The notes below the pieces were generated by a model. It searched no databases, was not told the DNA's origin, and was given only the letters and a program-made list of their open reading frames with translations. The position numbers and the translations under genes were made by a program. Shown here piece by piece: positions 2,265-60,699 of a stretch of DNA of 64,000 nt. Source of the stretch: Mobula hypostoma (taxonomy: Eukaryota); NCBI RefSeq assembly GCF_963921235.1, contig NC_086097.1:176516001-176580000 (forward strand). The letters are read 5' to 3'. Within the stretch, counting starts at the first letter, position 1, and every line of letters begins with the position of its first letter.

Positions 2265-4020
2265 TTGCTCCTCAGGTTCTTACAAAGTATTTCCCCTCTC
2301 AACTTACAACTATGTCCTCTAGCTTTTGATTCCATAACCCTGGAAGAAAGATCACTCACCCTATCTATTTCTCTCATGATTTATGTTCCTCCCTGAGATC
2401 ACCCCCCAGTCTCTTGTGCTCCAAACCACTGCCTAACCACTCTGTATAACTCTGTCCCTTAAGTTTTGGCAATATCTTTGTAAATCCTTCTTTATTCCTT
2501 CTAATTTAGTCTCACTTTCCTATAACAGGGAGACCAAAGTTGAACAGTACTTCAAGTGTGTCTATGCCAATAGCTTGAACAACTGCATTATAATCTCCCA
2601 CCGACTATATTCAATGACCCAACTGATGAAAGCCTTCTTAATATCCACATACTGTACCCAAGAATATTAGCATTACCCTCCTTGATCAGCATAGCATCTT
2701 CCATGAACTCCTCCTTGGTGAATACTGATGCAAAGTACTCATTTAGGACCACACACAAAATGCTGGAGAAACTCAGCAGATTAGGCAGCATCTATTGAAG
2801 ACAATAAGCAGTTGACATTTTGAGCCAAGACCCTACATTGACTGTTGATCAGTATATTGATGCCTCTCCATTGATGCCACCTGACCTGTTGAATCCCTTC
2901 AGCATTTTGTGTGTGATGCATATGATTTCCAGCATCTGTAGAATCTCTTGTATCTTATTTAGGACCTCATCCCCTTCCTCTGGCTCCAGGTATAGATTTC
3001 CCCCTTTGTCCTTAAGTGTATTTGCCTTTTCCTTATCCTTGTACATTTAATATAAATATAAAATTCCTTGTGAACCTTCTTAATCCTATTTGCCAAGATC
3101 ACCTCAAGGTCCCCTTTAGCTCTCCTAATCTCTTGCTTAAATTAATTTCTGCTTGTATACTCCTCAAGGGCCTTATCTGCTTTCAGTTTCCTAAACCTTA
3201 CTTATGCTTTTTCATTTTGACTAAGCTAGAAATAGCTTTTGTCACCCTAAACCTGAACCTTGTCACCTTTATCTTTCATCCTTTTAGGATCACACTGGTC
3301 CTGAATTCTAACCAGATGGCCTTGTAAGGACTTCCACATGTCAGATGTGGACTTACCCACAAACAGACTCTTCCTATTTACTTCCCTCATGTCCTGTCTA
3401 ATACTGTTATAATCAGTCTTCCACCAATGTTACACCTTCACCCTAGGACCAGACTGATTCTTGTCCATAACTATCTTAAAACTTGCAGAGTTCTGATCAC
3501 TTTTCCCATAATGCTCCCTGACTAAAATTCTGATCACATGCCCAAGCTCATTTCCTAGTACAAGGTCTAGTATAGCCCTTGCCTAGTCGTACTAACAACA
3601 TTCTGTTTCAAGAAACTCCCCTGATGTACTTAACAAAAGTACATCATTTAGGTCCCTGGGTCTAAGAAAATGCCAGTCAATAATAAGAAAGTTAAAATCA
3701 CTTGCTAAAATAACCCAGTTGCTGCTTCAATTTTCTATGATCTGCCTTTGTACTTGTGTCCCATTGAGACAGCTGTAGTGCAACTTCATCAGAGTGTTTG
3801 CACCTTTCTTTATTCCTGCGCTCTATCCATATTACTTCATGAGATGAATCCTCCAGTTTGCCCCCTCTAGGTCCAGCTGTTACATTCTCCCTCATTAGTA
3901 ATGTACTGTAACTCCCCCACCTTATTATCATCCCTCTATCACATTTGAAACATCTAAACCCTGAAATATTAAGCTGCCATTCCTGTCTGTCTCTCTCAAG
4001 TTTCTGTATCAATACAGTAA
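2265..4020 (-). mobile_element. Degenerate CR1 ORF2 (APE to RT, internally deleted)
   Basis: Minus-strand translations QEWQLNISGFRCFKCDR and LNEYFASVFTKEE, plus RT C-terminal remnants. Confidence 0.8.
2751..2956. mobile_element. Fold-back mini-element derived from the Penelope 3' end (degenerate hammerhead), with 10-bp TSD
   Basis: atttaggacc at 2741-2750 and 2957-2966; inverted arms acacacaaaatgctg.../...cagcattttgtgtgt; homologous to 11130-11264. Confidence 0.8.
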
Positions 4021-4144
4021 TCCAGGATCTAAACTCATGTGCCTCACTTTTAGTACTCCTTGCACACTGTAGGCCCCACCTTATTCAATAATCTGACACA
4101 TGACCCTATTCCATTAAATGTACCTGATCTAACCTAAGCTAAGT

Positions 4145-4392
4145 GGACTCTTAAGAGGGACTCTAAAATTGACCTGATCTCTCAATCTAACTTGGTTTGA
4201 TGTTGTACCTTGTTATTTACCTGCACTGCCCTCTCTCTGTAAGTTGCTACATTTTATCCCGCATTAGGTTGTTTTTACCTTGTTCTACCTCACTTCACTG
4301 AGTAATGACTTGATCTGTAGGAATAGTATACAAGACAAGCTTTTCTCTGTATCTCAGTACATGTGATGATAATAATAAACCAATCCCAATTT
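4145..4392 (+). repeat. Rex1-type LINE 3' tail / non-autonomous repeat
   Basis: Ends tacatgtgatgataataataaaccaatcccaat; related tail in reverse at about 44100-44340. Confidence 0.5.
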
Positions 4393-4914
4393 GTAATTCA
4401 ACAATCATGCTACTTGCTGATCTACTTCTCTCGTTCCCACCCCTTCTGCTACATGGGTTTAAACCCTCCTGAGTAGAACTTGCAAACCTCCCTACAAGGA
4501 CATTGAAATTGCACACAACAGCCCAAAGAACATGATCTTGAGAATTTAGCTACAGAGGAAAGGAAATACTGTGCTACTGTTTAACTCCAATATTTCTACA
4601 AATCAAGTCAACTATGAACAGTGATAGTGGACAGACAATGCTTTTATCCAGGGTGGTGATATCCTCTTGCCACCCTGTGATAAAGGCTATAGCACTGACA
4701 GTAGTTGTTTTATCTGGACAACCTTGGTCTCCAACCAACCCCAGATATTCCCTTAGATATCTTCACACTTCCCCCTCTGCACTATATAAAACACACACAA
4801 TTTCTCATACTGACAATAAATTCTTGACCTAAAATGTTAACTCTTGTTTTCTCTCAGTACAGATGCTGGCTGACTGACCAACTTACTGAATGGTGGAAAA
4901 TTTAGACAACAATA

Positions 4915-5237
4915 AAGAGTGGTGATACTTTACTGAACAAGGATGACCTCTGACTTGGAGGAGTAACTGTCGGTTGTGTTTTTCCCATGCACCTACTGCC
5001 TTTGTCCTTGTCTTTTGTGTTAGTTGAGGTCGTAGGTTTGGAAGGTGCTATCAGAGTAGCTTGGACAAATAACTGTGCTTTGTAGATGATACAGATTGCA
5101 GCTGAGGTGTGCCACAGGTGGAGGGAACAAATATTAGGGTGGCAAGTAAGAATGCCGTCAAGAAGGATCTTTTGTCCTGAATGGTATTGCACGTCTTTCA
5201 GGTTTTTGAAAGCTGCACTCATTCAGGCAAGTGGAGT
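4915..5237 (-). mobile_element. Old non-LTR retrotransposon RT C-terminal fragment (CR1/L2-group, family unassigned)
   Basis: Minus ORF 4902-5222 (MSAAFKNLKD...SLHLWHTSAAICIIYK) resembles a LINE RT C-terminus; probable related 3' piece at 59820-59945. Confidence 0.5.
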
Positions 5238-5317
5238 CTGAGAAGATTCAATTTGTCCACAAGGATTCGCTCAAATGTCTACAAGTGTGCAATAGAAAGT
5301 ACCTTTACAGATATTTT

Positions 5318-6706
5318 CTAGGATTGGAGGACAGCAGATGTTACGCTGTTCAAAAGAGGCTCTAAATAGAAACTAGGACATTATAGGTTGGTGAGTCTGA
5401 CATCAGTTGTGAGAAAGTTAATTGGAAGGTATTCGAAGAGACCAGGCATATAGTATTTGGATAGTCATGGACTGTTTAAGGATAGTCAGCATGTCTTTGT
5501 GTGTGGTATGTCATGTCTAACCAATCTTATAGAGTTTTTCAAGGAAGTTACTAGGAAAGTGGATGAAGGCAAATCAGTGAGATGTTGTCTACATGGACTT
5601 TAGCAAGGCATTTGACAAGGTTCCACATGGGAGGCTAGTCATGAAGGTTTAATCACTCACTATTCAGGATGAGGTAGTAAATTAGATTAGACGTTGGCTT
5701 TGTGGGAGAAGCCAGGGAATGGTAGTAGAGGGTTAGTTATCTCCCTGACTGGAGGCCTGTGTCTAGTGGAGTGCCACAGGTATCGGTGCTGGGTCCTTTG
5801 TTGTTTGTCATCTATATCATTGATCTGGATGATAATGTGGTAAACTGGATCAACAATTTTGTGGATGACATCAAGATTGGGGTGTAGTGGACAGTGAGGA
5901 AGGTTATCATGGCTTGCATAGGGATCTGCCTCTGGAAAAATGGGCTGAAAATGGCAGACGGAATTTAATACAGAAAAGTGTGAGGTTTTGTACATCAGGA
6001 GGACCAACCAGAGTAGGTCTTACACAGTGAACGGTAGGGCACTGAGGAGTGTGATAGAACAAAAGGATCTGGGAATACAGGTACATAATTCAGTGAGAAT
6101 GACAGGTAGATAGGGTCATAAAGAAAGCTTTTGGCACATTGGCCACAAATCAACATGTTGAGTACAGAAGATGGGATGTTATGTTGAAGTTGTATAAGAT
6201 GTTGGTAAGGCTTATTTTGGAGTATTATGTGCAGTTTTGGTCACATAACTACAGGGAAGATGTAAACAAGGTTGAAAGAGTGCAGAGAAAAATTACAAGG
6301 ATGTTGCCGGGTTTGGAGGACAAGAGTAATAATGAAAGGTTGAATAGGTTTAGGACTGTATTCCTTAGAATATAGAAGACTGAGAGGAGATTTGATAGAG
6401 GTATACAAAATTGAGGGGTATATACAGGGTAAATGCAAGCAGGCTTTTTCCAGGGTGAAGGGTGAGAAGTTTAAGGGGAACATGAGGGGTAACTTCACTC
6501 AGAGGGTTGTGAGCTTCCAGCACAAGTGGTCCATGCGAGCTTGATTTAAACGTTTAAGAGTAGTTTGGGTAGGTACATGGAAAGTAGGGATTTGGTGGGT
6601 TATGGTCCCAGGGCAAGTCGTTGGGAGTAGGCAGATTGTATCGCTTCGGCATGGACTAGATGGCTGAAGGGCCTATTTCTGTGCTATACTTCTCCATGAC
6701 TCTATG
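5318..6706 (+). mobile_element. CR1 LINE, 5'-truncated RT, degenerate
   Basis: MDFSKAFDKVPH, GVPQ, FVDD and ERVQR motifs with frameshifts; 3' tail ccatgactctatga. Confidence 0.9.
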
Positions 6707-7539
6707 ATGGCTTTCATCTGAACCAAGCATGGTAACTGCTCCGTTCTCTTCCATCTGTGCAGTCCACTTGATGGTATGTTACTTCAGGAATGCCAACAAT
6801 ATCAGCAAGGACTCTTCCCACCCTGGCCATTCCCTTTTCGCTCTTCCATCTCTTCTGAGAAAAGATGTACTTGGAAGCACAGATATTCAGACTCAAGAAC
6901 AGCTTTTCCCACACTGCTGTCAGACATCTGAACAAATGACCTCCTCTCAATTATAAGTATACCACTTTGGGTACGGTTGTGGGGGAAGACCTCCCAGGGA
7001 ATTGCCATGGAGACCAGGTTACTGGCACTGAGCATGGGTCCATGGTGCAGGAAGGAAGGAGGGAGAAGAAGGGAGTGGTAGTGATAGGGAACTCAATAGT
7101 CAGGGGAACAGACATGGGATTCTGTGGACATGAATGGGGGACACGAATGGTATGTTGCCTCCCTGCTGCCAGGGTCAGGGACGTCTTGTATCGTGTCTAC
7201 AGCATTTTGAAGAGAGGGGGAGAGCAGCCAGATGTCTTGGTACATATTGGTACCAATGACATAGGAAGGAAAAACATAGAGGTCCTGAAAAGAGAATTTA
7301 GAGAGCTAGGTAAAAAGCTGAGAAGCAGGACCTCCCAGGTAGTAATTTCTAGATTGTTGCCTATGCCACACAACAGTGAGGGTAGAAAGGGATGGTTTGG
7401 CATATTAATGCATGGCTGAGAAGCTGGTACAGGAGGCAGGGCTTCAGGTTTTTGGATCATTGGGATCTCTTGGGGAGGTATGACCTGTTCAAAAGTGATG
7501 GGTTGCACCTAAACACGAGGGGGACCAATATTTTCATGG

Positions 7540-8391
7540 TGTTGCATGCCTCAAGGAGATCTATGATTTTTTTTTGAGAATGATGTAATGGTCTTTTGGA
7601 GGTCACCTGATGTAATTTTCCTGCCGATGTGAGGTCACGTGATGACATGTGCACCATGGGTATATAAGGGAAGACCCCAGATGACAGTTAGTTTTTAGTT
7701 TTTAGATTTCCAGCTAGAACATACTGTGTCTCCATTTCTGTTGCGTATTTGTTTTTATGACGCAGTTTCATTTTTAAAATGGAGTGTTGCATTCTGTTGC
7801 AAGGTACAATATTACTGGACTGGAAATTTTTGCTAGATGTGTTGATGTACCTTATTCTGGCAGTAGTACGGGAGAGTGAAGACTTTATCGAAGTACAGGA
7901 CCGGAAGGATTGAGAGGAGTTGGTTTCGTTCAGCAGTTTATCAAAGGATCGAACTTGTTGAGTCTTAGTTGAAGATAACTCTTGCCAAAAGAGCAGAGTT
8001 CATGCAAGGTTTGCTCTCTAAAAGAAATTAAGGTCAGTTGTTTTAAACTGTTTATTTACTGCATCGTGAATCCTTCAGAAAGAACCAGCAGGAAAGTCGC
8101 GTCTATGAAGAAATCCTTCTCCAGAGGAGTCTCTCCCAATTGAACGTATAAACCTGTTGGACTTTTGAATTTACCATTTTAAGAACTATATCTGACTTTA
8201 CTGTTTTAAGAACTGTTTTTGCATTTAGCGCTTTCAGAACCAGTCCCTAGTGACGATTTGTTGAATGGCTGCATAGCGGTTAACTTCCGGTTAAGGTTTT
8301 CGATTTTTTTTATTGTTTATCCGTGTTTAATAAATTTTTGGTTGTTTTTATATAACCTGTCTCGATTGATATTCATTGTTGGCGGTTAACA
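7540..8391 (+). mobile_element. Solo LTR (852 bp) with 4-bp TSD
   Basis: Termini TGTT...AACA; ATGG at 7536-7539 and 8392-8395; TATATAA at 7661; AATAAA at 8329; empty site visible at about 37795-37820. Confidence 0.88.
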
Positions 8392-9487
8392 ATGGGCAGG
8401 TTTGTTAGAGCTGTTGGGGAGGATTTTAACTAATTTGGTGGGGGGGGTGATGAGAACCAAAGTGAATGTTCTCAGGATAGGATGGATGGTAAAAAAGCAA
8501 AATTAGCATTTAGTCAGGCTGACAGAAAGGACAGGCAGATGATAAGAAAAAATTGCAGCCAGCAGGGTGAATATCAGTGCATTAAGGATGCATAATCAAA
8601 AATGGCAGAAAATACAGTACTTAAAATGTTATATCCCAAAGCACAGAGTATAAGATATAAGGTGGATGAATTTGTTGCACTATTACAGACTGTCAGGAAT
8701 GATGTTTTGGCCATCACCGAATTGTGGCTGAAGGATGGCTGTAGTTGGGAGCTGAATGTCCAAGGTTACATGTTGTATTGGAGGGATAGGAAGGTAGGCA
8801 GAGGGGGTGGCATGGCTCTGCTGGTAAAGAATGGCATCAAATTATTTGGAAGATGTGACATAGGATTGGAAGATGTTGAATACTCGTGGGTTGAGTTAAG
8901 AAACTGCAAGGGTGAAAGAACCCAGATGGCAGTTATATACAGGCCTCCCAACAATAGCTGGGATGTAGACCACAGACTACAATGGGAAATAGAAAAAGCG
9001 TGTCAAAAAGGCCAATGTTATGGCAGTCATGGGAGATTTCAACATGCATGTTGATTGGGAAGATTAGGTTCGTATTGGATCTCAAGAGAGTGAGTTTGTT
9101 AAATGCCTATGAGATTGCTTTTTAGAACAGTTTGTCATTGAGCCTACCGGGGGATCAGCTATATTGGATTGGGTGTTATGTAATAAACTGGAGGTGGTTA
9201 GGGACTTTAAGGTAAAAGAACCCTTAAGAGACAGTGATCACAATATGATTGAATTCAACTTGAAATTTGATAGGGAGAAAATAAAGTCTGACATAACAGT
9301 ATTTCAGTAAAGTAAAGGAAATTACAGTATTTCAGTAAAGTAAAGGAAATTACTCGATTCTGCATACCTCGACACGGTTTTATCACCCCTTGTTCAATCC
9401 CTTCCGACCTATGTTCGTGACACTTCTCACGCTCTTAAACTTTTCGATGATTTTAAGTTCCCTGGCCCCCACCGCTTTATTTTCACC

Positions 9488-10839
9488 ATGGATGTCCAGT
9501 CCTTATATACTTCCATCCCCCATCAGGAAGGTCTCAAAGCTCTACGCTTTTTGGATTCAAGACCTAATCAGTTCCCCTCTACCACCACTCTGCTCCATCT
9601 AGCGAAATTAGTCCTTACTCTTAATAATTTCTCCTTTGGCTCATCCCACTTCCTCCAAACCAAAGGTGTAGCTATGGGCACCCGTATGGGTCCTAGCTAT
9701 GCCTGCCTTTTTGTTGGGTTTGTGGAACAATCTATGTTCCGTGCCTATTCTGGTATCTGTTCCCCACTTTTCCTTCGCTACATCGACGACTGCATTGGCG
9801 CTGCTTCCTGCACGCATGCAGAACTCGTTGACTTTATTAACTTTGCCTCCAACTTTCACCCTGCCCTCAAGTTTACCTGGTCCATCTCTGACACCTGCCT
9901 CCCCTTTCTAGATCTTTCTGTCTCTGGAGACAGCTTATCCACTGATGTCTACTATAAGCCTACTGACTCTCACAGCTATCTGGACTATTCCTCTTCTCAC
10001 CCTGTCTCTTGCAAAAACGCCATCCCCTTCTCGCAATTCCTCCGTCTCTGCTGCATCTGCTCTCAGGATGAGGCTTTTCATTCTAGGATGAGGGAGTTGT
10101 CTTTTTTTAAAGAAAGGGGCTTCCCTTCCTCCACTATCAACTCCGCTCTTAAACGCATCTCCCCCATTTCACGTACATCTGCTCTCACTCCATCCTCCCG
10201 CCACCCCACTAGGAATAGGGTTCCGCTGGTCCTCACCTACCACCCCACCAGCCTCTGGGTCCAACATATTATTCTCCGTAACTTCCGCCACCTCCAACGG
10301 GATCCCACCACCAAGCACATCTTTCCCTCCCCCCCCCCCTCCCTGCATTCTGCAGGGATCGCTCCCTATGCAACTCCTTTGTCCATTCGTCCCCCCCATC
10401 CCTCCCCACTGATCTCCCTCCTGGCACTTATCCGTGTAAGCGGAACAAGTGCTACACATACCCTTACACTTCCTCCCTTACCACCATTCAGGGCCCCAAA
10501 CAGTCCTTCCAGGTGAGGCAACACTTCACCTGTGAGTCGACTGGGGTGATGTACTGCATCCGGTGCTCCCGATGTGGCCTTTTATATATTGGCAAGACCC
10601 GACGCAGACTGGGAGACCACTTTGCTGAACATCTACGCTCTGTCCACCAGAGAAAGCAGGATCTCCCAGTGGCCACACATTTTAATTCCACATCCCATTC
10701 CCATTCTGAAATGTCTATCCACGGCCTCCTCTACTGTAAAGATGAAGCCACACTCAGGTTGGAGGAACAACACCTTGTATTCCGTCTGGGTAGCCTCCAA
10801 CCTGATGGCATGAACATCGACTTCTCTAACTTCTGCTAA
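9488..10839 (+). pseudogene. Penelope RT/GIY-YIG ORF, frameshifted near the poly-C at about 10330
   Basis: ORFs 9488-10516 (RT) and 10513-10839 (GIY-YIG) lie in different frames. Confidence 0.85.
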
Positions 10840-11132
10840 GGCCCCACCTCCCCCTCGTACCCCATCTGTTACTTATTTTTATACACACATTCTTTCTCTC
10901 ACTCTCCTTTTTCTCCCTCTGTCCCTTTGAATATACCTCTTGCCCATCCTCTGGGCCCCCCCCCCCCCGTCTTTCTTCCCGGACCTCCTGTCCCATGATC
11001 CTCTCGTATCCCCTTTTGCCTATCACCTGTCCAGCTCTTGGCTCTATCCCTCCCCCTCCTGTCTTCTCCTATCATTTTGGATCTCCCCCTCCCCCTTCAA
11101 CTTTCAAATCCCTTACTAACTCTTCCTTCAGT

Positions 11133-11170
11133 TAGTCCTGACGAAGGGTCTCGGCCTGAAACGTCGACTG
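11133..11170 (+). ncRNA. Minimal type-I hammerhead ribozyme
   Basis: tagtc-CTGACGA-agg(gtctcgg)cct-GAAA-C-GTC-gactg: complete core boxes, stem I tagtc/gactg, stem II agg/cct, loopless palindromic stem III (ACGT); predicted cleavage after C11165. Confidence 0.85.
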
Positions 11171-14100
11171 CACCTCTTCCTACAGATGCCTGGCCTGCTG
11201 CGTTCACCAGCAACTTTGATGTGTGTTGCTTGAATTTCCAGCATCTGCAGAATTCCTGTTGTTTGAAATTACAGTGGTATGAGAGAGGAGTTGGCTAAAG
11301 TAAATTGGAACGAGGTGGTGTAGGGATGACAGCAGAGCAGCAATGGCATGAGTTTCTGGGAAAAATGAGGAAGGTGCCGGATATTGCAGATATATTCCAA
11401 AAACAAAGAAATACTCAAATGGCAAAATAGTACATACTGGCTGACAACGAATATCAAAGCTAATGTAAAAGCTAAAGAGAGGGCACACAACAAAGCAAAA
11501 ATTAGTGGGAAGGCAGAGGATTAGGAAGGTTTTAAAAATCTATAGAGAGCAACTAAAGGAGTCATTAGGAGGGAAAAGATGAAATATGAAAGCAAGCTAG
11601 CAAACAATATCAAAGTGGATGTTAAAAAGCTTTTTAAGTGTGTGGGGGAAAAAAAAGTAAGAGAGATGAGAGTGGGTATAGGACCACCAGAAAATGAGGC
11701 TGGAGAAATAACAGGGACAAGAAAATGGCAGATGAACTAAATGAGTATGTTGCATCAGTCTTCACTGTGGAAGATACTAGCAGTGTGCCAGATGTTGAAG
11801 GGTGTGAGGAGAGAGAAGTGAGCGCAGTTACTATTACAAGGGAGAATGTGCTCAAAAAAACTAAAAGACCTAAGGGTACATAAGTCACCCAGGTCAGATA
11901 AACTGCACTGTGAGGTTCTGAAAGAGGTAGTGTTAGAGATTGTGGTGGCATTAGAAATGATCTTTCAAAAATCATTGGACTGTGACATGGTACAAATATC
12001 ACTCCACTCTTTAAGAAAGGAGGATGGCAGCAGAAAAGAAGCCATAGACCAGTTAGCCTGACCTCAGTGGTTGGGAAGCTGCTGGAATCAATTGTTAAGG
12101 ATGAGTTTATGGAGTACTTGGTGACTCAGGACAAGATAGGACAAAGTCAGCATGCTTTCCTTAAGGGAAAATCTTGCCTGATGAACTTGTTTTGAATTCT
12201 TTGAGGAGATTACAAGTAGGATATTCAAAGGGGATGCAGTGGATATTGTATATTTGGACTTTCAGAAGGCCTTTGAAAAGTTGCCATACATGAAGCTGCT
12301 TACCAACTTAAGGGACCATGGTATTACAGGAAAGTTACTGGCATGGTTAGAGCATTGGCTGATTGATAGGAGGCAGCGTGAGTGAATAAAAGGATCCTTT
12401 TCTGGTTGGCTGCCAGTGACTAGTGGTGTTCCACAGGGGTTGGTGTTGGGAGTGCTTCTCTTTAGGCTGTATATCAATGACTTAGATGATGGACTAGATG
12501 GCTTTATTACCAAGATTGTAGATGATACAAAGATTGGAGAGGGGCATGAAGTTTTGAGTAAACAGGTTGACTGCAGGAGGACTTAGATGAGGACAATGGG
12601 TAAGAAAGTGGCAAATGAAATACAATGTTGGAAAATGCATGATCATAGACTTCTGTAGAAAGAATAAATGTGTGGACAATTTTCTAAATGTGGAGAAAAT
12701 CCAAAAATCTGAGATGCAAAGGGATTTGGGATTCCTTGTGCAGAACAACCTGAAGGTTAACTCGTTGATAGTCAGTTGTGAGGAAGGCAAATGCAATGAT
12801 GGCATTCATTTCAAACAGGTCAAGAAATCAAGAGCAGGGATATGATGCTGAGGCTTTATAAGGCACTAGTGAGTCCTAACCTTGGGTATAACGAACAGTT
12901 TTGGGCTGCTCATCTAAGAAAAGATGAGCTGGCATTGGAGAGAGTCCAGAGGAGGTTCACAAGGATGATTTCGGGAATGAAAGAGTTATCATATGAGGAA
13001 CATTTGCTAGCTCTGGGTCTGTACTAGCCAGAATTTAGAAGGCTGACCGGTGGTGGGGGGGGGGGGGTAGTATCTCATTGAAACCTTTTGAATGTTGATA
13101 GGGTTGACATGGTAGTTGTGGAAAGGATGGTTCCCATGATGGGGGAGTCTAGGACAAGAGGTCACAGCCTCAGGGTGGAAGGGTGTCCATTTAAAACAAA
13201 GATACAGGGAAATTACTTTAGGCAGAGGGTAGTGAATTTGTGGAATTTATTACCTCTGGCAGCTGTAGAGGGTTAGGTTGTTGGGTGTATTTAAGGCAGA
13301 GCTTGATAGATTCTTGAAGGTTATGGGGAGAGGGCTGGGGATTGGGGCTGAGGAAGGGAAAAGAAAGGATCAGCCATGATTGAATGGTGGAGCAGAGTCA
13401 ATGGGTCAAATGGCCTAATTCTGCACCTATGTCAATGGTCTTGTGGTCTTCACACCCGCTTCATGGAGGCATTGTGCCAGGAAGCGTTTCTGTGGCTGCC
13501 CCAGGTGTGTTTCTGTAAAATGAAGCTCCCCATCCCAGAGCACTGATAGTTGAGGAGCTGGCAGTGGTAAAGCCAAATACAAGGGGGTGAGACATTCTTA
13601 TGGAGGTGAGCTGACCATAATTATATAGTATACTTCCAGAGCAGATAAAAAAAAATTCTGAATAAAAGGTATAAATATTGAGTTCTGGAGAATATTTAAG
13701 TTTTCTATTTGCAAACACTTTGACTTTAATTCTCATTGACACCAGGAACACCTGCTCAATTATTGGCTTCATTCAAGATCTCCTCTTGCCAGTGTGGAAC
13801 CTAAATTAGAAATAAGAGGAAGGAATCCTTCTCTCATAGTCACACTGAATTAAATTAATTTATAATCTTCAGACAGTGTGATCTAATTTAGAACACCTGG
13901 AAATTTGTAGCTCCAAATCATAATTTACAATGTCACAGCAAATAGAACCATTTTGAAATTTCTACTAAGCATACCAAGGCATTCTGTATCTGACATGTCA
14001 GCTGACAATTCATTCTTCTGGATTCCAGGAGAGCTTTCTGTTTGCTGAACTGTGTTCCCTTTCTAACAATTCCCTGCAGCCAGTGTAACCCAGGCAAGGT

Positions 14101-14875: not shown

Positions 14876-15110
14876 TCTCCCACATGCCCATCAGCTCCTC
14901 CTAGATTCTACCAATCATCAATACACTAGTGCAAATTATTAGTGGCCAGTTAGTCTATCACCCTTAGGATAGATGAGGAGAATGGAGTATCAGGAGGAAA
15001 CCCACAAAATCACAGGGAAAGCATGCAAACTCTACGCAGAAAACAACGAGATCAGGATTGCCCCGGGCCTCTGGCACAGTGAAGCAGCAACTCTAGCACT
15101 GTGCCACCCT
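14876..15110 (-). mobile_element. tRNA-derived V-SINE-type element
   Basis: Minus strand: tRNA-like head (gggtggcacagtg...) then V-domain-like gagtttgcatgctttccctgtg...gggtttcctcc. Confidence 0.7.
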
Positions 15111-44099: not shown

Positions 44100-44790
44100 G
44101 GAACTGGAATTGGTTTATTTTGTCTCATGCACCAAGGTGCAGTAAAAAGCATGCCATCCATGTAGATAATTTCATTGCAACAGTACATTGAGGCAGTAAC
44201 AAAATGCAGAATACAGTGTAACCATTACAGAGTAGGTGCAGTGCAGGCAGATGCTAAGGTGCAAGGGTCATAGTGAGTAAATTGTAAGGTCAAGAGTTCA
44301 TTTTATTGTTCAATAGTTTTAGAATAGAAGCTGTCCTTGAGTCCAGTGGTATGTAATTTCAAGCTTTTACATCTTCTGTTTGATAGGAGGGGGAAAAGAG
44401 AGATCGTCCAGGCTGGATGGGGTCTTTGATCAGTCCTAATGAAGCATCTCACACTCAGATGTTGACTACTTATTCCTCTCCATTGATGCTGCCCGACCTG
44501 CTGAGTTCCTTCAGCATTTTATGTGTGTTGCTCTTTGACTATGTTGGCTCCTTTACTGAGGGAACAGGAAGCATAGCCAGTGTCTATGGAGTGGAGGCTG
44601 GCTTCCATGATGTGCTGAATTGTGTCCACAACTCGCTGCAGTTTCTTGCGGTCATAGGCAGAACAGTTTCCATAGCAAGCTGTGATGCATCCGGATAGGA
44701 TTCTTTCTGTGAGGTATTGATAAAAAATGGTAAGGGTCAAAGGACTGTCTACAGATCGTTCTGACCTTCTGACGGATAGTTGTAGATCTA
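44100..44790 (-). mobile_element. Rex1 3' fragment
   Basis: ILSGCITACYGNCSAYDRKKLQRVV. Confidence 0.8.
44430..44531 (+). mobile_element. 102-bp hammerhead-derived mini-element with 7-bp TSD
   Basis: tctttga at 44423-44429 and 44532-44538; begins cagtcctaatgaag (degenerate stem I + CTGATGA box); homologous to 11133-11230. Confidence 0.78.

Positions 44791-46523: not shown

Positions 46524-46565
<42 letters not shown>
46524..46565. repeat. (GA)21 microsatellite
   Basis: Read directly. Confidence 0.95.
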
Positions 46566-46568
<3 letters not shown>

Positions 46569-47445: not shown

Positions 47446-47476
47446 CTGGTGACAAGTAGCAGTTCCTGCTATGTGG

Positions 47477-47625
47477 GACTGGAGGAACTAGGCAGCATCT
47501 ATGGAGAGAAATGGACAGTTGATGTTTCAGGCCAGGACCTTTCATCAGGACTGTTTGTCAACTGTTCATTTCCTTCACAGACCCTATCTGACCTGCTGAG
47601 TATCTCCAGTATTTTATGTATGCTT
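47477..47625. mobile_element. Fold-back Penelope-3'-derived mini-element with a near-intact minus-strand hammerhead (47516-47553)
   Basis: Minus: cagtc-CTGATGA-aagg(tcctgg)cct-GAAA-C-ATC-aactg; inverted arms gaaatggacagttga / tcaactgttcatttc. Confidence 0.72.
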
Positions 47626-48749: not shown

Positions 48750-49228
48750 GTACTGTAGGAAAGGCAAATGCAATGTTAGCATTCACTTCCAGAGGACTAG
48801 ATTATAAAAGTAAGGATGTAAAGCTTTATAAGACATTGGTCAGACCATATTTGGAGTATTATGAGTAGTTTCGGGCCCACTATCCAAGGAAGGATCATTT
48901 GGGTACAAAAGGGTCCAAAGGATGTTTACAAATATGATCTAGGGAATGCGAGGTTAATTTATGAGGAGAGTTTTATGGCTCTGGAGTTCAGAGGAAAGAA
49001 GGGGAGCTCATTGAAACCTACTGAATATTGAAGGACCTAGACAGAGCGGACATGGACAGGATGTTTCCATTAGTGGGAGAGGTGGGAGAGTCAGGATCTA
49101 AGGATGTCCCTTTAGTACAATTTGTTTAGCTTGAGGGTGGTGAATCTATGGAATTCATACCACAGGCAGCTGTGGAGGCCAGGTCATTGGGTATTTTTGA
49201 AGCAAAGGTTTCACAGGTTCTTGAATAA
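48750..49228 (+). mobile_element. CR1 3' fragment (probably resumes at about 54562-54705)
   Basis: KANAMLAF..LYKTLVRPYLEY. Confidence 0.75.
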
Positions 49229-49230
49229 CG

Positions 49231-49681
49231 CAGACAAAATGCTGGAGGAGCTCAGAGGGTCAGCTGGCATCTGTAGAAATGAATAAACAGTCAATGTTTC
49301 GAGCCTATACAACACTGGGAAGGAAGGGAGAAGCCAGAATAAGAAAGTTGGGGGGCGGGGGGAAGAGTCAAGATTGAAATGATAGTTGAAGCCTGGTGAA
49401 CTGGGGAGAGGGATGAAGTAAGAAGCTGGGAGGTGATAGGTGGAAAACATAAAGGGTCGGAGAAGGAGTCAGATGAGAGGGGAGTCAACCATGAGAGAAA
49501 GGGAAAAAAGAAGGATGCCAGGGCAAACCGACAGGCAGGCGAAGGTAAGAGAAGAGGAAAGATGGAAGTTTGAGTGAGAATTGAAGAAGAGGGAAGGGGG
49601 ACTGGAGAAATGTTACCTAAAGTTATAGAAATTGATATTCATGCTTTCAAATTGGAGGCTACACAGATGGAACATGAGGTG
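49231..49681 (-). mobile_element. Penelope 3' fragment, degenerate
   Basis: HLMFHLCSLQFESMNINFYNFR matches HLVFRLGSLQPDGMNIDFSNF at about 10770-10839. Confidence 0.82.
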
Positions 49682-49687
49682 TAATTG

Positions 49688-52600: not shown

Positions 52601-54476
52601 TGATGGTGGTAGAGCAGTAGATGTAGTGTAAATGGATTTCAGCAAGGCATTTGACAACGTACCCCATGCAAGGCTTATTGAGAAAGTAAGGAGGCATGGG
52701 ATCCTGGGGGAAATTGCTTTGTGGATCCAGAACTGGCTTGCCCACAGAAAGCAAAGAGTGGTTGTAGACGGGTCATGCTCTGCATGGAGGTCAGTCACCA
52801 GTGGTGTGCCTCAAGGATCTGTTCTCGGACCCCTACTCTTCGTGATTTTTATAAATGACCTGGATGGAGAAGTGGAGGGATGGGTTAGTAAATTTTCTGA
52901 TAACACAAAAGTTGGAACTGTTGCAGATAGTGTAGAGGACTGTCAAAGGTTACAGTGGGACATTGATAGGATGCAAAAATGGGCTGAGTGTGGCAGATGG
53001 AGTTCAACACAGATAAGTGTGAGGTGGTTCATTTTGGTAGGTCAAATATGATGACAAAATATAGGTATTAATGGTAAAACTCTTGGCAGCATGGAGGATT
53101 AGAGGGATCTTGGGTTCCGAGTCTATAGGACACTCAAGGCTGCTACGCAGGTTGAATGTGTGGTTAAGAAAGCATACAGTGCATTGGCGTTCATCAATCA
53201 TGGGATTGAGTTTAGGAGCCGAGAGGTAATCTTGCAACTATATAGGACCCTGGTCAGACCCCACTTGGAGTACTGTGCTCAGCTCTGGTCCCTCACTACA
53301 GGAAGGATGTGGAAACCATAGAAATGGTGCAGAGGAGATTTACAAGTATGTTGCCTGGATTGGGGAGCATGCCTCATGAGAATAGGTTGAGTGAACTCGG
53401 CCTTTTCTCCTTGGAGAGACGGAGGATGAGAGGTGACCTGATAGAGGTGTATTAGATGATGAGAGGCATTGATTCTGTGGATAGTCAGAGGCTTTTTCCC
53501 AGGGCTGAAATGGCGAGCAAAAGAGGGCACATTTTTAAGGTGCGTGGAAGTATGTACAAAGGAGATATCAGGGGTAAGATTTTTATGCAGAGAGTGGTGA
53601 GTGCATGGAATGGGCTGCCGGTGACGGTGGTGGAGGCGGATATGATAGGGTCTTTTAAGAGACTCCTGGACAGGTATATGGAGCTCAGAAAAATAGAGGG
53701 TTAGATTATGAGAACACTCAGTCCTCTTTTATTGTCATTTAGAAATGCATACATGCATTAAGAAATGATACAATGTTTCTCCAGAGTGTTATCACAGAAA
53801 ACAGAACAAACCAAAGACTAACACTGACAGAACCACATAATTATAACATATAGTTACAGCAGTGCAAAGCAATGCCATAATTTGATGAAGAACAAACCAT
53901 GGGCACGGTAAGTAAAGTCTCAGAAGTCCCTGAGTCGATCGACTACCGAGTCCCTGATAGCAGGAGGCAAAAGGGAGAAACTCCCTGCCATAAACCTCCA
54001 GGCACCATTAACTTGTCGATGCCTTGGAAGCAGCCGACCACAGCCGACACTGAGTCCGTCCATCTGAAAACTTCAAGCTTCCAACCAGCCTCTCCGATAC
54101 AGCCTCCCGAGCGCCATCCTCTGCCGAGCGCCTTCGACCTTGCCCCAGCCGCTGAAACAGGCAAAGCCGAGGATCTCGGGGCCTTCTGCTCTGGAGATTC
54201 CGGTTACCACACAGTAGCAGCGGCAGTGAAGCGGGCATTTCAGAAGTTATCCAGATGTTCCTCCATGTTCTCTAATCTGTCTCCATCAAATCAGAATTGT
54301 GCACAGTCCCCTATTTGATAGATAACAGACATCACCACCGAAGTGGCCGCGCGCACTGCCATCGCACCGCCATCGTCTCCTTATGGGTAATCCAAGGTAC
54401 TTTCTCAGGTAAGGACATGTTCAGCACAGCTTTGTGGGCCGAAGGGCCTGTATTGTACTGCAGGTTTTCTAAGTTC
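49688..54476 (+). mobile_element. Near full-length CR1 (family A), second copy, disabled, with an insertion in its 3' end
   Basis: ORF1 from 49908 (FCARC..ICARC, HIGTND), APE 50940 onward, RT to about 53700; candidate TSD taattg at 49682-49687 and 54477-54482. Confidence 0.92.
53704..54380 (-). mobile_element. Young non-coding, non-autonomous retroposon (GATGGCGG 5' motif, AATAAA + AATCT-type tail)
   Basis: Splits the CR1 sequence aaatagaggg|ttatgggtaa (compare 29970-29995); CpG-rich. Confidence 0.75.
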
Positions 54477-54706
54477 TAATTGAACGCAGTTACCTCGGAT
54501 CCTCGGTGGGTCCAGTCTGAACTCTGCCTGAAAGTGGAGCTGGAATCCATGTGGTGCATATATTGATTACTAAAGGCTTCAAAGATTATGGGGAAAGTCC
54601 AGGAGAATGAGGTTGTGAGGGAAAATATATCTGTCATGATTGAATGGCAGAGCAGACTTGATGGGCCAAATGGCCTAATTCTGCTCCTATATCTCATGGT
54701 CTTATG

Positions 54707-54780
54707 CAGGCAGTCCTCAGGTACGACAGGGTTTTGCTCATAAGATCTGTTGGTGTATCGGAAATGAATAAAACAGTGTG
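54707..54780 (+). mobile_element. Possible Tc1/mariner (Tigger-like) terminal fragment
   Basis: caggcagtcctcaggtacga resembles Tigger TIRs; no partner end seen. Confidence 0.3.
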
Positions 54781-55224
54781 TGAGATAGTCACAGGAGATC
54801 AAGCAGGCAGGGGTAGACCAGCTGCCAGACGGCATCACCGACTTGGTGACTGACTCTACTCAGTCCCCAGTTGTTGTGGCTCAAGTGAATGGATGGGAAA
54901 GGCAAGGGGAAATGCCTCATTTCCTCCCAGCAATAGATACCTGAGGCCCTACAGAAGCAGCTATATCCATCCCCATTCATTCCACTGGTTTCCCAAGTAC
55001 TCACTTGAATCATAGAGGTATAGATTCAGAACACAACAGCAAGAAACAGGCCCTTTGGTCCATCTGACTTGATCTTCCATCTAGTTCTTGGTCTCTACAG
55101 TGACCCTACAAATTTCTGGTAGCAATGCCCTTTGGAAAGCCCCTGCAGAATCTACTTCTTTTTCCCCCTCAGGCACCATGTTCCAAATCAATGTAACTCA
55201 CTGATTTAAAAATCTTCTGCTTCC

Positions 55225-56846
55225 AGGGGAGCGGTCACTGTCTGTAACAGCAGCAGATGTGAGAAGGACTCTGCAGAGCGTCAACCCCCATAAGGCTGAC
55301 AGGCCAGACAGCAGCTCAGGCTGAATACTCAGGGAGTGTGCACACCAGATCATTGACATCTTCATGGGCACTTCAACGCTTCACTCATCCAGGCTGCTGT
55401 GCCCCCTTGTTTCAAATTAGCCACCAGCATCCCTGCACCAAAGAACTCTACACCTTCAGAACTAAGTAACTACCATCCAGTGGCACTGATGCCAGTCATC
55501 ATGAAGTGCTTTGTATGGTTGGTAATGGTACATATCAAAACTCCAATGCTGCCACATTGGACATGCAGAAATATGCTTATTGAAGGAGCCACTCCATGAC
55601 AGATGCCATAGCTTTTGTCATTTACCCGGCCCTGGCACACAAGGACCTTTTGTCAGATTGCCTTTTCTGGATTTCATTTTGGCATTCAGCAGTATTGTTC
55701 CACAGATCCTGGTGAACAAGCATCTACTCCTTGGTCTAAATACACCACTGTGCACTTCCTAACCAATGGACCTCAGGTAGTCGGGATGCACAACTGTTCC
55801 TCCCTCCTCATCATCCTCAACATGGGTGTCCTCCGGGGCTGCGTTCTGAGCCCACTGCTGTAGACTCTGCTCACACATGAGTGCACGGCTGAACACCAGA
55901 GTAATCACATCGTCAAGTTCGCCGATGACATGCCAGTGCTGGGGCTCAGCACCAACAGCAATGAGATGCCCTACAGGGAGGAGGTGGAATAGCTCAAGCA
56001 CTGGTCCCAGGCAAATAACCTTTCCCTCAATGTCATCAAGAGAAAGGAGCTGGTTATCGACTTCGAGAACGTGCACCGTTCACACCCCTCTTTACGTCAG
56101 CAACACAGCAGTGAAAGCTGTGACCAGCTTCAAGCTCCTGGGAGTGCACATCTCACACAACCTCTCATGGTCCCAGACACACCCTGCACAATCAAGAAAG
56201 CTCAGCCAAGCCTCTACTTTCTGAAGAGGCTGAAGAGAGCTGGGCTATGCACATCAATTCTTACAACCTTCTACAGATGTGCAGTAGAGAGCATCCTAAC
56301 ATGCTGCATCACTGCATGGTACGGAAAATGCTCTGTGGTGGATAGGAAGGCTTTACAACTGGTAGTCAATACTGCCCGATGTATCATCAGCACCAGTCTA
56401 CTTGTCATCACAGAAGGATGCTGGATAAAGGCCAGTAAGATCATTAAGAATCCCACCAATCCTGCTCATGGACTGTTCGTCCCACTCCCATCGGGGAGGA
56501 AGCTATGTAGCATTCACGCCAGGACCACCAGATTCCAAAACATTACTTTCCTAAGCAGTAAGGCTGATCAACTCCTCCATCCACTAACTCACCCCACCAC
56601 AGTACTTCATCATTTCCTGTCAGAGTTACCTTATGTACAGACACTCGTGTACCTAGTGTAATTTTATGGACGTAATCAATTTACTGTATACAGCTTTCAT
56701 ATATATTTATATCTATTGTGGTTTTTATTGTGTTCTTCACTTAGTATGTTTTTATATGCTGCATTGGATCTGGAGTAATAATTATTTCATTCTCCTTTAC
56801 ACTTGTGTACTGGAAATGACACTAAACAATCTTGAATCGTGAATCT
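55225..56846 (+). mobile_element. Rex1 LINE RT, degenerate, (CTTGAAT) tail
   Basis: LSNYHPVALMPVIMKCF, GCVLSPLL, KFADD, LYFLKRLKRAGL. Confidence 0.88.
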
Positions 56847-57611
56847 TCCCTTGGGTTTCTTCCCATCTGGTACTGCAAATATTTTCTTCAAATATTCTGT
56901 GTCTGCCACCCTTCAAACTTTCAATTATATTTCTCTGATTTCTCCTGTGTGTCATAAATATATCACTCTTTAATTAGAAAATATATCGAAGGTCCCATAT
57001 GATCTTACACAATGCCTTAAGTGCTGGAAATTCTAGCTGGCAGAGCCCTGATGAGAGTTGTCGAACAGTCTGACCTCGAGGTATAGTTCCCTGAAAGTGG
57101 CAATGCAGGCAGAAAAAGCGGTGAAGAAAGAGTGTGGGGCACACTTGCCTTTGTCAACATTGACTTTAAGAGATGGGAATTGGACGCCACTTTCCAGCCA
57201 TACAAGACTTTCATGAGACTGCGTTCAGAGTATTGTGTGCAGTTCTGGTCAGCATATTAGAGAAAGGATGTGATTGAGCTAAAGAGGGTACACAAAGGAT
57301 TCACAAGGATGGCTTTGTTCTCTTTCCTCGTGAAATAACTAGTATCACTAATATTAACAATTTGTTCACCTGTGTCAATAAATTACCTATTTATGCTGTG
57401 TAGTGATAGTGGCATCTTACTACATGTAAGTTGGCGCCCAGATTTCCTTCATTTCAGGTCTGATTGGAATATATGTTATATCCAGTTTTTAATTTACAAA
57501 TTATCATGATACCATTTTAGTATTCTTATTATTAGCTTGAAAAGTATTTCAAAATGATTTTTGCTGAGGCATTGACAGATTCTGGGGAATCAAAAGCTAG
57601 TAGTATCTAAA

Positions 57612-58739
57612 AGTCATAGTCATAGTCATACTTTATTGATCCCGGGGGAAATTGGTTTTCGTTACAGTTGCACCATAAATAATAAATAGTAATAGAACCA
57701 TAAATAGTTAAATAGTAATATATAAATTATGCCAGTAAATTATGAAGTAAGTCCAGGACCAGCCTATCGGCTCAGGGTGTCTGACCCTCCAAGGGAGGAG
57801 TTGTAAAGTTTGATGGCCACAGGCAGGAATGACTTCCTATGACACTCTGTGTTGCATCTCAGTGGAATGAGTCTCTGGCTGAATGTACTCCTGTGCCCAC
57901 CCAGTACATTATGTAGTGGATGGGAGACATTGACCAAGATGGCATGCAACTTGGACAGCATCCTCTTTTCAGACACCACTGTGAGAGAGTCCAGTTCCAT
58001 CCCCACGACATCACTGGCCTTACGAATGAGTTTGTTGATTCTGTTGGTGTCTGCTACCCTCAGCCTGCTGCCCCAGCACACAACAGCAAACATGATAGCA
58101 CTGGCCACCACAAACTCATAGAACATCCTCAGCATCGTCCAGCAGATGTTAAAGGACCTCAGTCTCCTCAGGAAATAGAGACAGCTCTGACCCTTCTTGT
58201 AGACAGCCTCAGTGTTCTTTGACCAGTCCAGTTTATTGTCAATTCGTATCCCCAGGTATTTGTAATCCTCCACCATGTCCACCCTGACCCCCTGGATGGA
58301 GACAGGGGTCACCGGTATTCGTATCCCCAGGTATTTGTGATCCTCCACCATGTCCACACTGACCCCCTGGATGGAAACAGGGGTCACCAGTATTCGTATC
58401 CCCGGGTATTTGTGATCCTCCACCATGTCCACACTGACCCCCTGGATGGAAACAGGGGTCACCGGTATTCGTATCCCCAGGTATTTGTGATCCTCCACCA
58501 TGTCCACACTGACCCCCTGGATGGAAACAGGGGTCACCAGTATTCGTATCCCCGGGTATTTGTGATCCTCCACCATGTCCACACTGACCCCCTGGATGGA
58601 AACAGGGGTCACCGGTATTCGTATCCCCAGGTATTTGTGATCCTCCACCATGTCCACACTGACCCCCTGGATGGAAACAGGGGTCACCAGTATTCGTATC
58701 CCCGGGTATTTGTGATCCTCCACCATGTCCACACTGACC
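57612..58739 (-). mobile_element. Young Rex-Babar LINE 3' part with a tandem array at its 5' junction
   Basis: Near-identical to 17490-18114 plus 19293-19384; (TATGAC)n tail. Confidence 0.92.
58242..58739. repeat. 75-bp tandem array (6.6 units) with 150-bp higher-order structure
   Basis: Units start at 58242, 58317, 58392, 58467, 58542, 58617, 58692; alternating ccag/ccgg variants. Confidence 0.95.
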
Positions 58740-59228
58740 TGAGGCAACGATTTTACAGAAGGGGTGGATTGCATTTGAAATGAGCTACCAGAGACGGCTA
58801 TAACAGTAGCTTCTTTTAAAAGGCTGGACAGATTCAGATTCAGATTTAGACTTATTTACCACTTTTTTAAGACGAATATCAGAATTGGATTGTACATGCG
58901 TATTTTGACAATAAGATGAACGTTTGAACCTTTGAACATGTACATTAAAACTTATAGTGAAATGCATCCAATCATTTCAAATCCATGTGCAGGTCCATGA
59001 ACTGGAGAAGCTTAGAAGGTTATAGGCCAAATGCTGCAAATGAGATGAGCTATGATAGGGCATTTTGGTCAATATAGACCAGTTGGGCCAAAGGGCTTGT
59101 TTCTGTGCTGCATAACTCTATGACTCTGTGATATCTCCATCCCTCTCTCTATGCTCTCTACCTCTATTTCTATCCCACCCAATCTGATTCAGTCTTTACC
59201 CCCTTCCTCTCTTGCTTTTTGTCTTTAC

Positions 59229-59450
59229 CAATTCTGATGAAGGGTCTCAGACCTGAAGCACCAACTGTTCCACATCCCACAGACACTCACTGATCGACTG
59301 GATTTCTAGAACATTCTGTGTTTCTTTCATATTTCATGCATCTAAATATTTGTAAAAATTTTTATTTTAGCTTTCTCACTTTCCTAAAAGTGATGAAGTC
59401 TTTGACCTGAAATGTTATCCTGGTTTCTCCTTCCAGTTGCTCCTTTCCAG
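59229..59450 (+). repeat. Two tandem degenerate hammerhead-type Penelope 3' units
   Basis: ctgatga-agggtctcagacct-gaag at 59234-59258; gtgatgaagtctttgacctgaaatgtt at about 59390-59416. Confidence 0.6.
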
Positions 59451-60699
59451 CAGTGTTAAGGCAAAAAGCCAATCTTCTCCTTGCTTGTTCATTCAGATCT
59501 ATGTTTTATTCTAACTCTCAAAAGGATTCGGCACTCCTTCAAAGCCTCTGACAGTCTCTGTGAGTTCGTATAACTGCCCATTTACACCACACTGCCTGTT
59601 GCACTGTGTAGTCTCAGAATATTAAACCTTCCCAGTGACTCTGTCCCTCCTGTTATCAGACTCTTGAATGGTAAGATGGAGTCTTGATCTCACAATCTGC
59701 CTCAGTATGAATTTGCACTTTATTGTTTACCTGCACTGCACCCTATGACCTAGCCCCGTCACCCTAATCCTAGTTTTCATTCCCCTTTCCTGTCTGTTTC
59801 CATCTATTTTACTGATCTCCATCAGGGGAGGAATCCTGCCGTCCTTTCCTGGTCTGGCCTATATGTGACTCCGGACCCAGAGCAATGTGGTTGACTCTTA
59901 AATGCCTGCTGAAATGGCCTAGCAAGCCACTCAGATGTATCCAACCACTAAAAAGAAAATAATAGTGAATGAACCAGGACAGACAACCAAGAGTGACTCG
60001 GTAGCACCACCACAGACCGATCTGGTCAGGTCCTACTGGCCATAGCTACTAGCCTGGAACTACAGCAGGTGGTGAGGGAAAAGCACACGTGACCTCCTTC
60101 TCACCAAACTGCCTGCCGCGGAGCATCTGTCCATGACAGCATTGGTAGAAGTGACCACTGCACTGTATTTGTGGAGACTTAATCCTGTCTCCACCATGTT
60201 GTTAATAAGCCTTCAGCACCAGCACTCAACTGGAACCATCACCATAATGTTATTGTCCTTTATCCTATCACAAACATTCCCTTTCTTCTCCCTTTGGTCT
60301 CCTTCCCCTACACTGCAGCTTGAAAGATGCTTGATTTACAACTTTTCTATTTCTGATGCAGTGTTATGGGTCAGAAATGTTAACTCCATTTCTTCTTTCA
60401 CAAATGTTGCTCCATAGGCTGTGTAATTCTTGGATTCTTTGCTTTTATTTCAAATTTCTGCCATCTGGATTTGTTTAGCTTTTCAATATTAATGCAGTGC
60501 TTTTATGGTAAGTTCTGTAGATGACATTAATCAATCAATCATGTCCTCATCACATGATGGACCAATTTTAAGTGCAAATGAGACACCTAATTGAGTTGTG
60601 CCACAGAAACAACCTCTTGCTCAATGTCAGGACAACTAAAGAGCTGATAGTTGACTTCAGGAAAGGGAAACATACAGGTGGTTCTGTGGGCAAGAGTGA

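Follow-up and report, generated by a model that had tools for sequence, protein, structure and literature searches.

EN+ Penelope-like elements (PLEs), as described in three studies (PMC8557442, PMC3846280, PMC11167929), encode a reverse transcriptase followed by a GIY-YIG endonuclease, form partial tandems with pseudo-LTRs, and carry TSDs, an inverted 5'-truncated copy and an optional tail of 30-40 bp defined by two 3' end sites; for Adineta PLEs, solo pseudo-LTRs and palindromic junctions are also reported there. In vitro, a PLE protein nicks each of the two strands and starts synthesis internally at the two sites that delimit the tail, independently of ribozyme cleavage (PMC11167929). Drosophila Penelope has a 75-nt intron 46 nt downstream of its start site (PMC2377424), and the 3' end of this intron falls at helix I (PMC4209133). 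Metazoan PLEs carry minimal type I hammerheads, with a conserved core, an extra base before stem II, a short stem I and a palindromic minimal helix III, mostly as single dispersed motifs tied to truncated elements (PMC4209133). Non-LTR retrozymes, known from one chondrichthyan as well, are non-coding, derive from PLE pseudo-LTRs and have a type I hammerhead; they form head-to-tail tandems with an RNA unit running from cut site to cut site, and dispersed monomers exist (PMC7229834; bioRxiv 10.64898/2026.07.22.740005).

We analysed a window of 64,000 nucleotides from Mobula hypostoma (contig NC_086097.1, positions 176,516,001 to 176,580,000), which holds a young PLE with the following layout (window coordinates):

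9354-11264, plus strand: young 5'-truncated PLE, subfamily A, with TSD at 9346-9353 / 11265-11272
9344-10516, plus strand: reading frame with reverse transcriptase part (Pfam RVT_1, E 2.8e-6, under the curated cut-off)
10282-10839, plus strand: reading frame with C-terminal GIY-YIG endonuclease (Pfam GIY-YIG, E 0.0011, under the curated cut-off)
10840-11132, plus strand: pyrimidine-rich pseudo-LTR UTR; at its end a branch-point-like word, then polypyrimidine tract and AG
11133-11170, plus strand: minimal type I hammerhead, by sequence and predicted fold
11133-11137, 11138 and 11166-11170, plus strand: stem I 5' strand, C3 and stem I 3' strand of the hammerhead
11165/11166, plus strand: predicted hammerhead cut
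11134-11136, plus strand: 5'-start hotspot of short copies (-4, -3 and -2 from C3), with its peak at 11135
11231-11264, plus strand: optional tail of about 34 nt, between 3' end sites at 11230 and about 11264

RVT_1 precedes GIY-YIG as in EN+ PLEs, both Pfam scores lying below their cut-offs, and the two frames are frameshifted relative to each other in this copy. Sister copies are 93-97% identical to it, and the DNA around the insertion is presumably CR1-like. Full-length copies show the partial tandem and pseudo-LTR arrangement: in locus L081 two units lie at a distance of 3,511 nt, and L144, which retains an open frame of 802 aa, has a 5' unit ahead of its ORF. In both, the order is UTR, hammerhead, tail and ORF, and the long frame has its first ATG about 37 nt past the tail, so that the hammerhead-plus-tail segment precedes the ORF; in Anolis Poseidon, by contrast, the ORF starts inside the hammerhead. 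The elements themselves belong to a known class and are defunct.

The preliminary description had reported that the 3' part of this element recurs across the window without coding sequence. All the units it named were located again, along with one copy it had overlooked. Start positions are counted from C3 (11138), -3 being window position 11135:

2751-2956, no single strand: head-to-head pair, subfamily B, with the stem I palindrome (2840-2844) as junction, a 10-bp TSD at 2741-2750 / 2957-2966 and a tail on one arm
4810-4890, plus strand: faint old unit (profile E 2.7e-5)
44430-44531, plus strand: solo subfamily-B unit starting at -6/-5, tail-less and with a decayed core, with a 7-bp TSD at 44423-44429 / 44532-44538
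47477-47625, no single strand: head-to-head pair, minus arm from -5 (47553) and plus arm near +25 (47557)
49215-49682, minus strand: subfamily-B copy with GIY-YIG end and entire UTR (the overlooked copy)
59229-59455, plus strand: pair of old, degraded units in direct orientation, with a pyrimidine-rich stretch before each
60350-60480, plus strand: faint old unit, preceded by UTR-like sequence (profile E 4.1e-6)

Chance is excluded as the source of these units, since a profile search (E<=0.01) over 1,664,000 bases sampled from the 3.5-Gb genome returned 328 matches and the reversed sequence none. The two copies said to have their own TSDs, of 10 and 7 bp, do have them, while none was found when TSDs were sought at the 47477, 59229, 4810, 60350 and 49215 units. 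The cagtc strand of stem I likewise forms the 5' edge of three copies, namely the 44430 solo and the minus arms at 47553 and 2844, and both faint copies were recovered (E 3e-5 and 4e-6). The 44430 solo matches the subfamily B profile at 84 of 101 positions, and this solo, the 2751 pair and the minus-strand copy at 49215-49682 are all members of one older subfamily. The proposed tandem at 59229 does comprise two direct units. Because the sequence upstream of 59233 and 60352 is pyrimidine-rich as judged by eye, the units at these two positions probably do not start at stem I. Upstream of 60350-60480, the sequence resembles that of other old copies.

The hammerhead itself resembles those described in metazoan PLEs (PMC4209133), combining the core boxes, the extra base before a stem II, a short stem I and a palindromic helix III in its predicted fold. 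An Rfam scan of the window gave no hammerhead match and a single CsrC match, taken as chance, and the bare core pattern occurs there 3 times against 2.2 expected, which is not above chance. None of 10 dispersed window units tested has an intact catalytic core, which in the window only 11138-11165 keeps; among the 328 sampled profile matches, 44 retain it. Genome-wide there are 97,762 exact matches to the core, far more than the 4,000-9,000 motifs, counted by another method, in coelacanth and Xenopus (PMC4209133).

When 5' breakpoints were mapped against the hammerhead, they formed a sharp peak at stem I rather than a smooth distribution. Among young arms reaching the ribozyme front, 47 of 121 end within 24 nt (+9 to -14) where 7.6 are expected (Poisson P ~1e-21, though arms of one insertion are not independent). 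Exact start patterns across the genome number 3,536 at -3, 2,644 at -2 and 2,206 at -4; after correction, these correspond to estimated shares of about 9%, 5% and 6% of core-bearing copies, about a fifth for the three bases together, over a flanking start hazard of 0.2-0.3% per base. Hazards use extension-based start calls because a stricter caller misplaced starts at palindromic junctions; the extension-based calls overshoot some junctions to -13, still within the peak window. The mapping covered the subfamilies with an upstream model, which excludes the oldest; 30 loci biased to copies containing 11120-11270 were kept out of the breakpoint counts, and arm L226, with a junction identical to that of L195, was removed before counting. 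At 25 distinct -3 loci, the TSD is flush to the G in 5 and within 1-4 nt in 4, an inverted partner adjoins in 11, and 5 are unresolved. The edge persists in older subfamilies, in which 27 of 39 solos have the G at -3. We considered a cap-derived extra G, given a G at -4 in 57 of the 100 first-listed -3 matches (hand count), and rejected it: in 26 loci these were mostly inverted partner arms, and all five flush solos lack an extra cap-like G between TSD and element.

At the 3' side, 113 of 144 young arms end at one of two sites (34 at +95/96 and 79 at +127 to +129). Adjacent pairs among the 328 matches are head-to-head in 47 cases and direct in 3, and for 54 of 58 arms with an inverted partner, just one of the two arms carries the tail (some pairs enter the count twice, once per arm). 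Of 41 clean inverted junction arms, 21 show an overlap of 1-7 nt, and some junctions, as at L165, L242 and window 2840-2844, coincide exactly with the stem I palindrome. TSDs of these copies are mostly 11-15 bp. The two 3' end sites with a 34-nt tail, the head-to-head arms and the TSDs are all as described for EN+ PLEs, whereas we did not find a base-sharp start hotspot in stem I in the available sections of those accounts (PMC8557442, PMC3846280, PMC11167929).

In light of these data, the units are probably short hammerhead-plus-tail retrocopies of autonomous PLEs. The element's reverse transcriptase would initiate inside the RNA at one of the two tail sites and run off a putative 5' end of that RNA within stem I (window 11134-11135), in which case the hotspot would be a transcription start and the template the 5' leader of the ORF-bearing mRNA. 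Head-to-head pairs may then reflect two cDNAs primed on opposite strands and subsequently joined, often by microhomology in the ribozyme stems. Thousands of copies share a start within two or three bases at the front of the ribozyme, the likely reason being that the template RNA starts there too, and an RNA 5' end fits the edge better than does the structure of the ribozyme itself. One -3 solo (L243/L263), which ends 12 nt into ORF-side sequence, also speaks for this reading. Counting against it, about 60% of arms extend past the edge and the UTR lies ahead of the ORF in L081 and L144, so that longer or circular templates exist as well.

The main rival is a block to the enzyme at a splice site or a hairpin. 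In the first form, which we regard as unlikely, the template is a longer unspliced RNA on which the enzyme would be halted at the AG, either by factors bound there and at the polypyrimidine tract or by a splicing intermediate. Polypyrimidine tract and AG are conserved ahead of the hammerhead in all four subfamily profiles, the start peaks at -3 and -7 each fall on the G of an AG, and the termination of the Drosophila intron at helix I (PMC4209133) makes the AG here, by analogy, a splice acceptor, counting against a transcription start. Starts at -7 and -8 number about 2,000 and 700. We take the end of the UTR to resemble a 3' splice site and also an initiator, and subfamily A has what we take to be a better initiator-like word at -8; that -7 and -8 starts are nevertheless fewer counts against a start at -3. 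However, the first AG in subfamily A would be the preferred splice acceptor, and yet its peak is about a quarter of that at the second. Moreover, spliced junctions number 0 among 153 core copies, with none by motif scan, no GT-AG joint into the unit occurs among the joints listed, and the branch-point position (-18) holds at most about 2% of starts, a value inflated by single substitutions.

A second form, rather unlikely in our view, has structure set the edge, either because a hairpin of -13 to -4 with +1 to +9 (loop -3 to 0) or stem I stalls the enzyme, or because the cDNA folds back and is trimmed or joined by microhomology. Subfamily A is predicted to fold into this hairpin, with -3 as the first base of the loop; the junction overlaps and exact stem I palindrome junctions described above also speak for it. 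Solos flush to their target at -3, however, require no partner, and the hotspot is kept where the hairpin is weaker (predicted -3.7 to -6.6 kcal/mol in older subfamilies, against -8.2 in subfamily A) or in a different register. The cDNA hairpins reach just -1.9 to -3.4 kcal/mol, 0 of 7 folds exceed shuffles in stability, and a stall would be expected on the 3' side of the stem.

SINEs mobilised by LINEs are short, TSD-flanked and fixed in their ends, and have a 3' end in common with their autonomous partner, features that the units share. The preliminary description had interpreted the units as a separate non-autonomous family of SINE or retrozyme type; its dependence on Penelope machinery, its lack of a Pol III signature and its pile-up at the stem I edge hold, but a separate family is not supported. 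Unlike SINEs, the units have no foreign head and no lineage apart from their partner; no tRNA was found within the window, no Rfam match at the units and no A-box-like match in the one solo locus inspected (L265). In the young subfamily, 47 short and 59 long arms share common haplotypes in similar proportions (nearest-neighbour p=0.62) and do not differ at 11 variable columns (lowest p=0.14); these column and nearest-neighbour tests, used in place of a tree, rest on 86-nt alignments of 106 arms from one subfamily and have limited power. Every older short type tested also has long UTR-bearing relatives. The retrozyme hallmarks, tandem arrays and cleavage-site ends, are both absent, and the window contains no head-to-tail array with intact hammerheads; compared with retrozymes (PMC7229834; bioRxiv 10.64898/2026.07.22.740005), the units begin 31 nt ahead of the cut, stop at the tail sites and occur singly or as head-to-head pairs. 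The data thus do not support a SINE or retrozyme family in its own right: these repeats of 100-135 bases are terminal pieces of a Penelope-type element of very high copy number, not a separate element.

It is similarly unlikely that the unit has its own Pol II start in stem I together with reverse transcriptase priming sites, making solos, which may carry flanking DNA, a cloud of minimal non-autonomous retroelements copied in trans by Penelope protein and equivalent to a SINE that lacks a Pol III promoter. Quite doubtful, too, is a cloud of SINE- or retrozyme-like copies fed by many weak sources, in which short RNAs from solo copies serve as templates in trans. Fixed ends and TSDs would suit such copying, as would the composite insertion L226, a stub plus unrelated 5' flank that shares 98.5% identity with locus L195 across 392 nt, and the slightly higher private divergence of -3 copies (1.8% versus 0.7% in long copies, n=22 and 29, p=0.03). 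An earlier version of this divergence comparison (p=0.002) was biased by anchor selection and was discarded, and CpG decay does not differ between -3 and long copies (p=0.49). We note that the divergence difference counts against run-off at an RNA 5' end, and that the hints of stub copying in trans are two and weak. Short arms, however, show no private lineage in the haplotype tests (0 of 11 columns; p=0.62), direct pairs are as few as 3 against 47 head-to-head, and L226 is explicable by a template switch, as its stub and that of L195 carry different bases at a subfamily site. In addition, the PLE protein requires in vitro RNA lying downstream of where it starts (PMC11167929), which stubs lack.

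Finally, hammerhead self-cleavage is highly improbable as the origin of the template 5' end and is refuted as its main cause by the peak lying 31 nt upstream of the predicted cut in copies that retain the entire core, in keeping with its dispensability in vitro and the absence of Anolis reads ending at the cut (PMC11167929), though it may account for a minor share, given that +28 is the exact start of 3 among 144 young arms (two via the stem I palindrome) and that such starts make up at most about 1.6%, or up to about 1,340 genome-wide, a few-fold over baseline.

PLE transposition is poorly understood, and only a handful of species have a mapped RNA start. If PLE RNA begins at the hotspot that we attribute to run-off, its start can be read from the genome itself. 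Internal priming, so far seen in vitro, would then yield fixed-length leader copies in vivo by the thousands, from a main template not cut by the hammerhead. This would explain the origin of SINE-looking repeats without a SINE, and would offer a candidate route for the birth of retrozymes.

The units in the window are real. Profile and sequence comparison recovered every copy named in the preliminary description, whose two reported TSDs were also correct, together with an unlisted copy at 49215-49682 that still keeps its GIY-YIG end and UTR. Subfamily B fits best for the copies at 2751, 44430 and 49215, and the copy at 47477 fits B and D equally well. A minisatellite at 58242-58739 (75-nt period, 6.6 copies, 96% matches) is unrelated to the units by profile matches. 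In a sample of 1,664,000 bases, comprising the window and 160 ten-kb stretches (20 of them adjoining it), the unit profile gave 328 matches, and 0 in reversed sequence; scaled to the 3.48-Gb genome holding the window, this extrapolates to roughly 700,000 units. The genome contains 40,343 exact matches to a 26-nt word from the young subfamily, and 13,309 to a variant word.

The element class is already known (Penelope-like), and the window holds one young copy:

9354-11264: Penelope-like element truncated at its 5' end, with reading frames for RT and GIY-YIG, both Pfam matches being below cut-offs

Right at its 5' junction, 28 nt of the target are duplicated in tandem without mismatch (9296-9353). 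Because full-length sisters at the sampled loci L081 and L144 have the order UTR, hammerhead, tail, ORF, the unit forms the 3' end in all truncated copies and, equally, the leader ahead of the ORF. Four subfamilies (A, young; B, C and D, older), each with its own UTR, were profiled from hand-picked seeds.

Positions were numbered from the hammerhead core base C3 (window 11138 = 0), which puts -3 at 11135 and the predicted cut between +27 and +28. Arms, each being one unit copy in an insertion, were taken both from the 1.66-Mb sample and, on contig C1, from loci in its first 5 Mb. They were selected for a word lying at +70 to +95, blind to upstream sequence.

Stop rate per base in sampled arms
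+70 to +41: 0.0025
+40 to +10: 0.0029
+9 to -14: 0.0162
-15 to -30: 0.0068
-31 to -130: 0.0021
beyond -130: <0.001

Rather than being spread smoothly along the UTR, the outcome that the preliminary description had set against its own claim, 5' breakpoints peak at +9 to -14 (0.0162 per base), where 47 stops were observed against 7.6 expected, with paired arms not independent. The edge is sharp and testable. Genome-wide, start patterns requiring two non-matching bases ahead of the start placed it at -4 to -2.

Genome-wide starts: matches, then number after correction for chance matches (denominator 97,762 core matches; those for +28, ~84,000, and -18, ~63,000, are rough, being extrapolated from 40 and 30 matches in the sample)
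-3: 3,536; ~8,900
-4: 2,206; ~5,900
-2: 2,644; ~4,700
-7/-8: 1,535; ~2,700
-18: 699; at most 1,380
+28 (cut site): 752; at most 1,340

Across all subfamilies, the UTR is missing in 115 of the 264 copies having an intact core start; these UTR-less copies keep G at -3 in 83 cases and A at -4 in 78, conservation falling near background by about -9. Among 25 distinct -3 loci (26 retrieved), a TSD lies flush to the G in 5 and nearly flush in 4, an inverted partner is present in 11, and the other 5 were assigned to none of these groups. L275 and L276, an identical -3 solo with identical flanks 4 kb apart, represent a local duplication. Contigs of two other public runs join many dissimilar flanks at -3 (10 and 20 contigs), these being junctions, not RNA starts. 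At L087 (1149 and 3003), a joint present in contigs of two runs links position 1149 of the RT region to the A at -4 and adds two bases. A jump between templates following the -4/-3 edge would explain it, as would a derivative with an internal deletion. At L144:7505-7509, several contigs rejoin a tail end to the -5 to -1 region, some with intervening extra bases; these joints are short direct tandems beginning at the same edge.

As for how the edge arises, we lean towards a model in which the Penelope-like enzyme would prime at a tail site within the leader, and cDNA synthesis would then run off the RNA 5' end at -4/-3. The word at this position matches an initiator consensus. The same word acting as a 3' splice site also fits, and PMC4209133 and PMC2377424 place a 3' splice site of Drosophila Penelope at helix I, with the start site ~120 nt upstream. 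None of 153 cores belonged to a spliced copy. In the older subfamilies (profiles B-D), a GT resembling a splice donor sits at the stop codon of the ORF, ~300 nt upstream of an acceptor-like AG; subfamily A (10836-10845) lacks a donor-like GT there. A hairpin with its loop at -3 to 0, predicted in subfamily A, might instead set the edge, but in the other subfamilies the hairpin is weaker and the edge persists. Hammerhead cleavage is not its main cause, corrected cut-site starts numbering at most 1,340 versus ~8,900 at -3.

Literature searches outside subscription journals, Dfam and Repbase turned up no report of Penelope-like copies whose 5' starts cluster at the hammerhead, nor any of these repeats in sharks or rays. 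The sharp edge is not described in the available portions of PMC11167929, PMC4209133, PMC2377424, PMC8557442, PMC3846280, PMC7229834 or bioRxiv 10.64898/2026.07.22.740005.

At the other end, young arms (n=144) stop at +95/96 in 34 cases and at +127 to +129 in 79, on a reference that itself stops at +129, a few bases short of some copies. An inverted partner accompanies 58 of the 82 arms starting 40 nt or less upstream of C3 or later, and in 54 of these 58 a tailed arm is paired with a tail-less one. Both features agree with what PMC11167929 describes for Anolis Poseidon, where RT initiates internally at two sites and both strands are nicked. Long inverted pairs (L002, L003, L008, L023 and L026) have arms of similar length, with starts such as 10858/10874 and 11051/11063, as though a pair of cDNAs had been extended side by side until they met. 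At L226 (C1:2960000-2962500, minus strand), one TSD-bounded composite contains an inverted arm, a tailed hammerhead unit, ~350 nt of DNA that is unrelated and LTR-element-like, and a stub. It is 98.5% identical across 392 nt to L195, whose stub has its own TSD, which shows that the 5' flank of a stub was captured, copied from an L195-like locus, by either trans priming or a template switch.

The preliminary description had cast the units as a non-autonomous family mobilised in trans, with ends set by ribozyme structure and not by a Pol III promoter. A Pol III head was indeed not found by Rfam and tRNA searches of the window or by an A-box-like search of the solo locus L265. A separate family was not supported: the main haplotypes are common to 47 short and 59 long young arms, between which no alignment column differs (nearest-neighbour test, p=0.62). 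Neighbouring units within 60 nt are direct in 3 cases versus head-to-head in 47. Counting against the same-family reading, -3 copies are more diverged than long copies at non-polymorphic sites (1.8% vs 0.7%, p=0.03), which greater age, or quicker loss of long copies, would also explain; CpG decay did not differ between them. The edge is not the hallmark of a retroelement family of its own.
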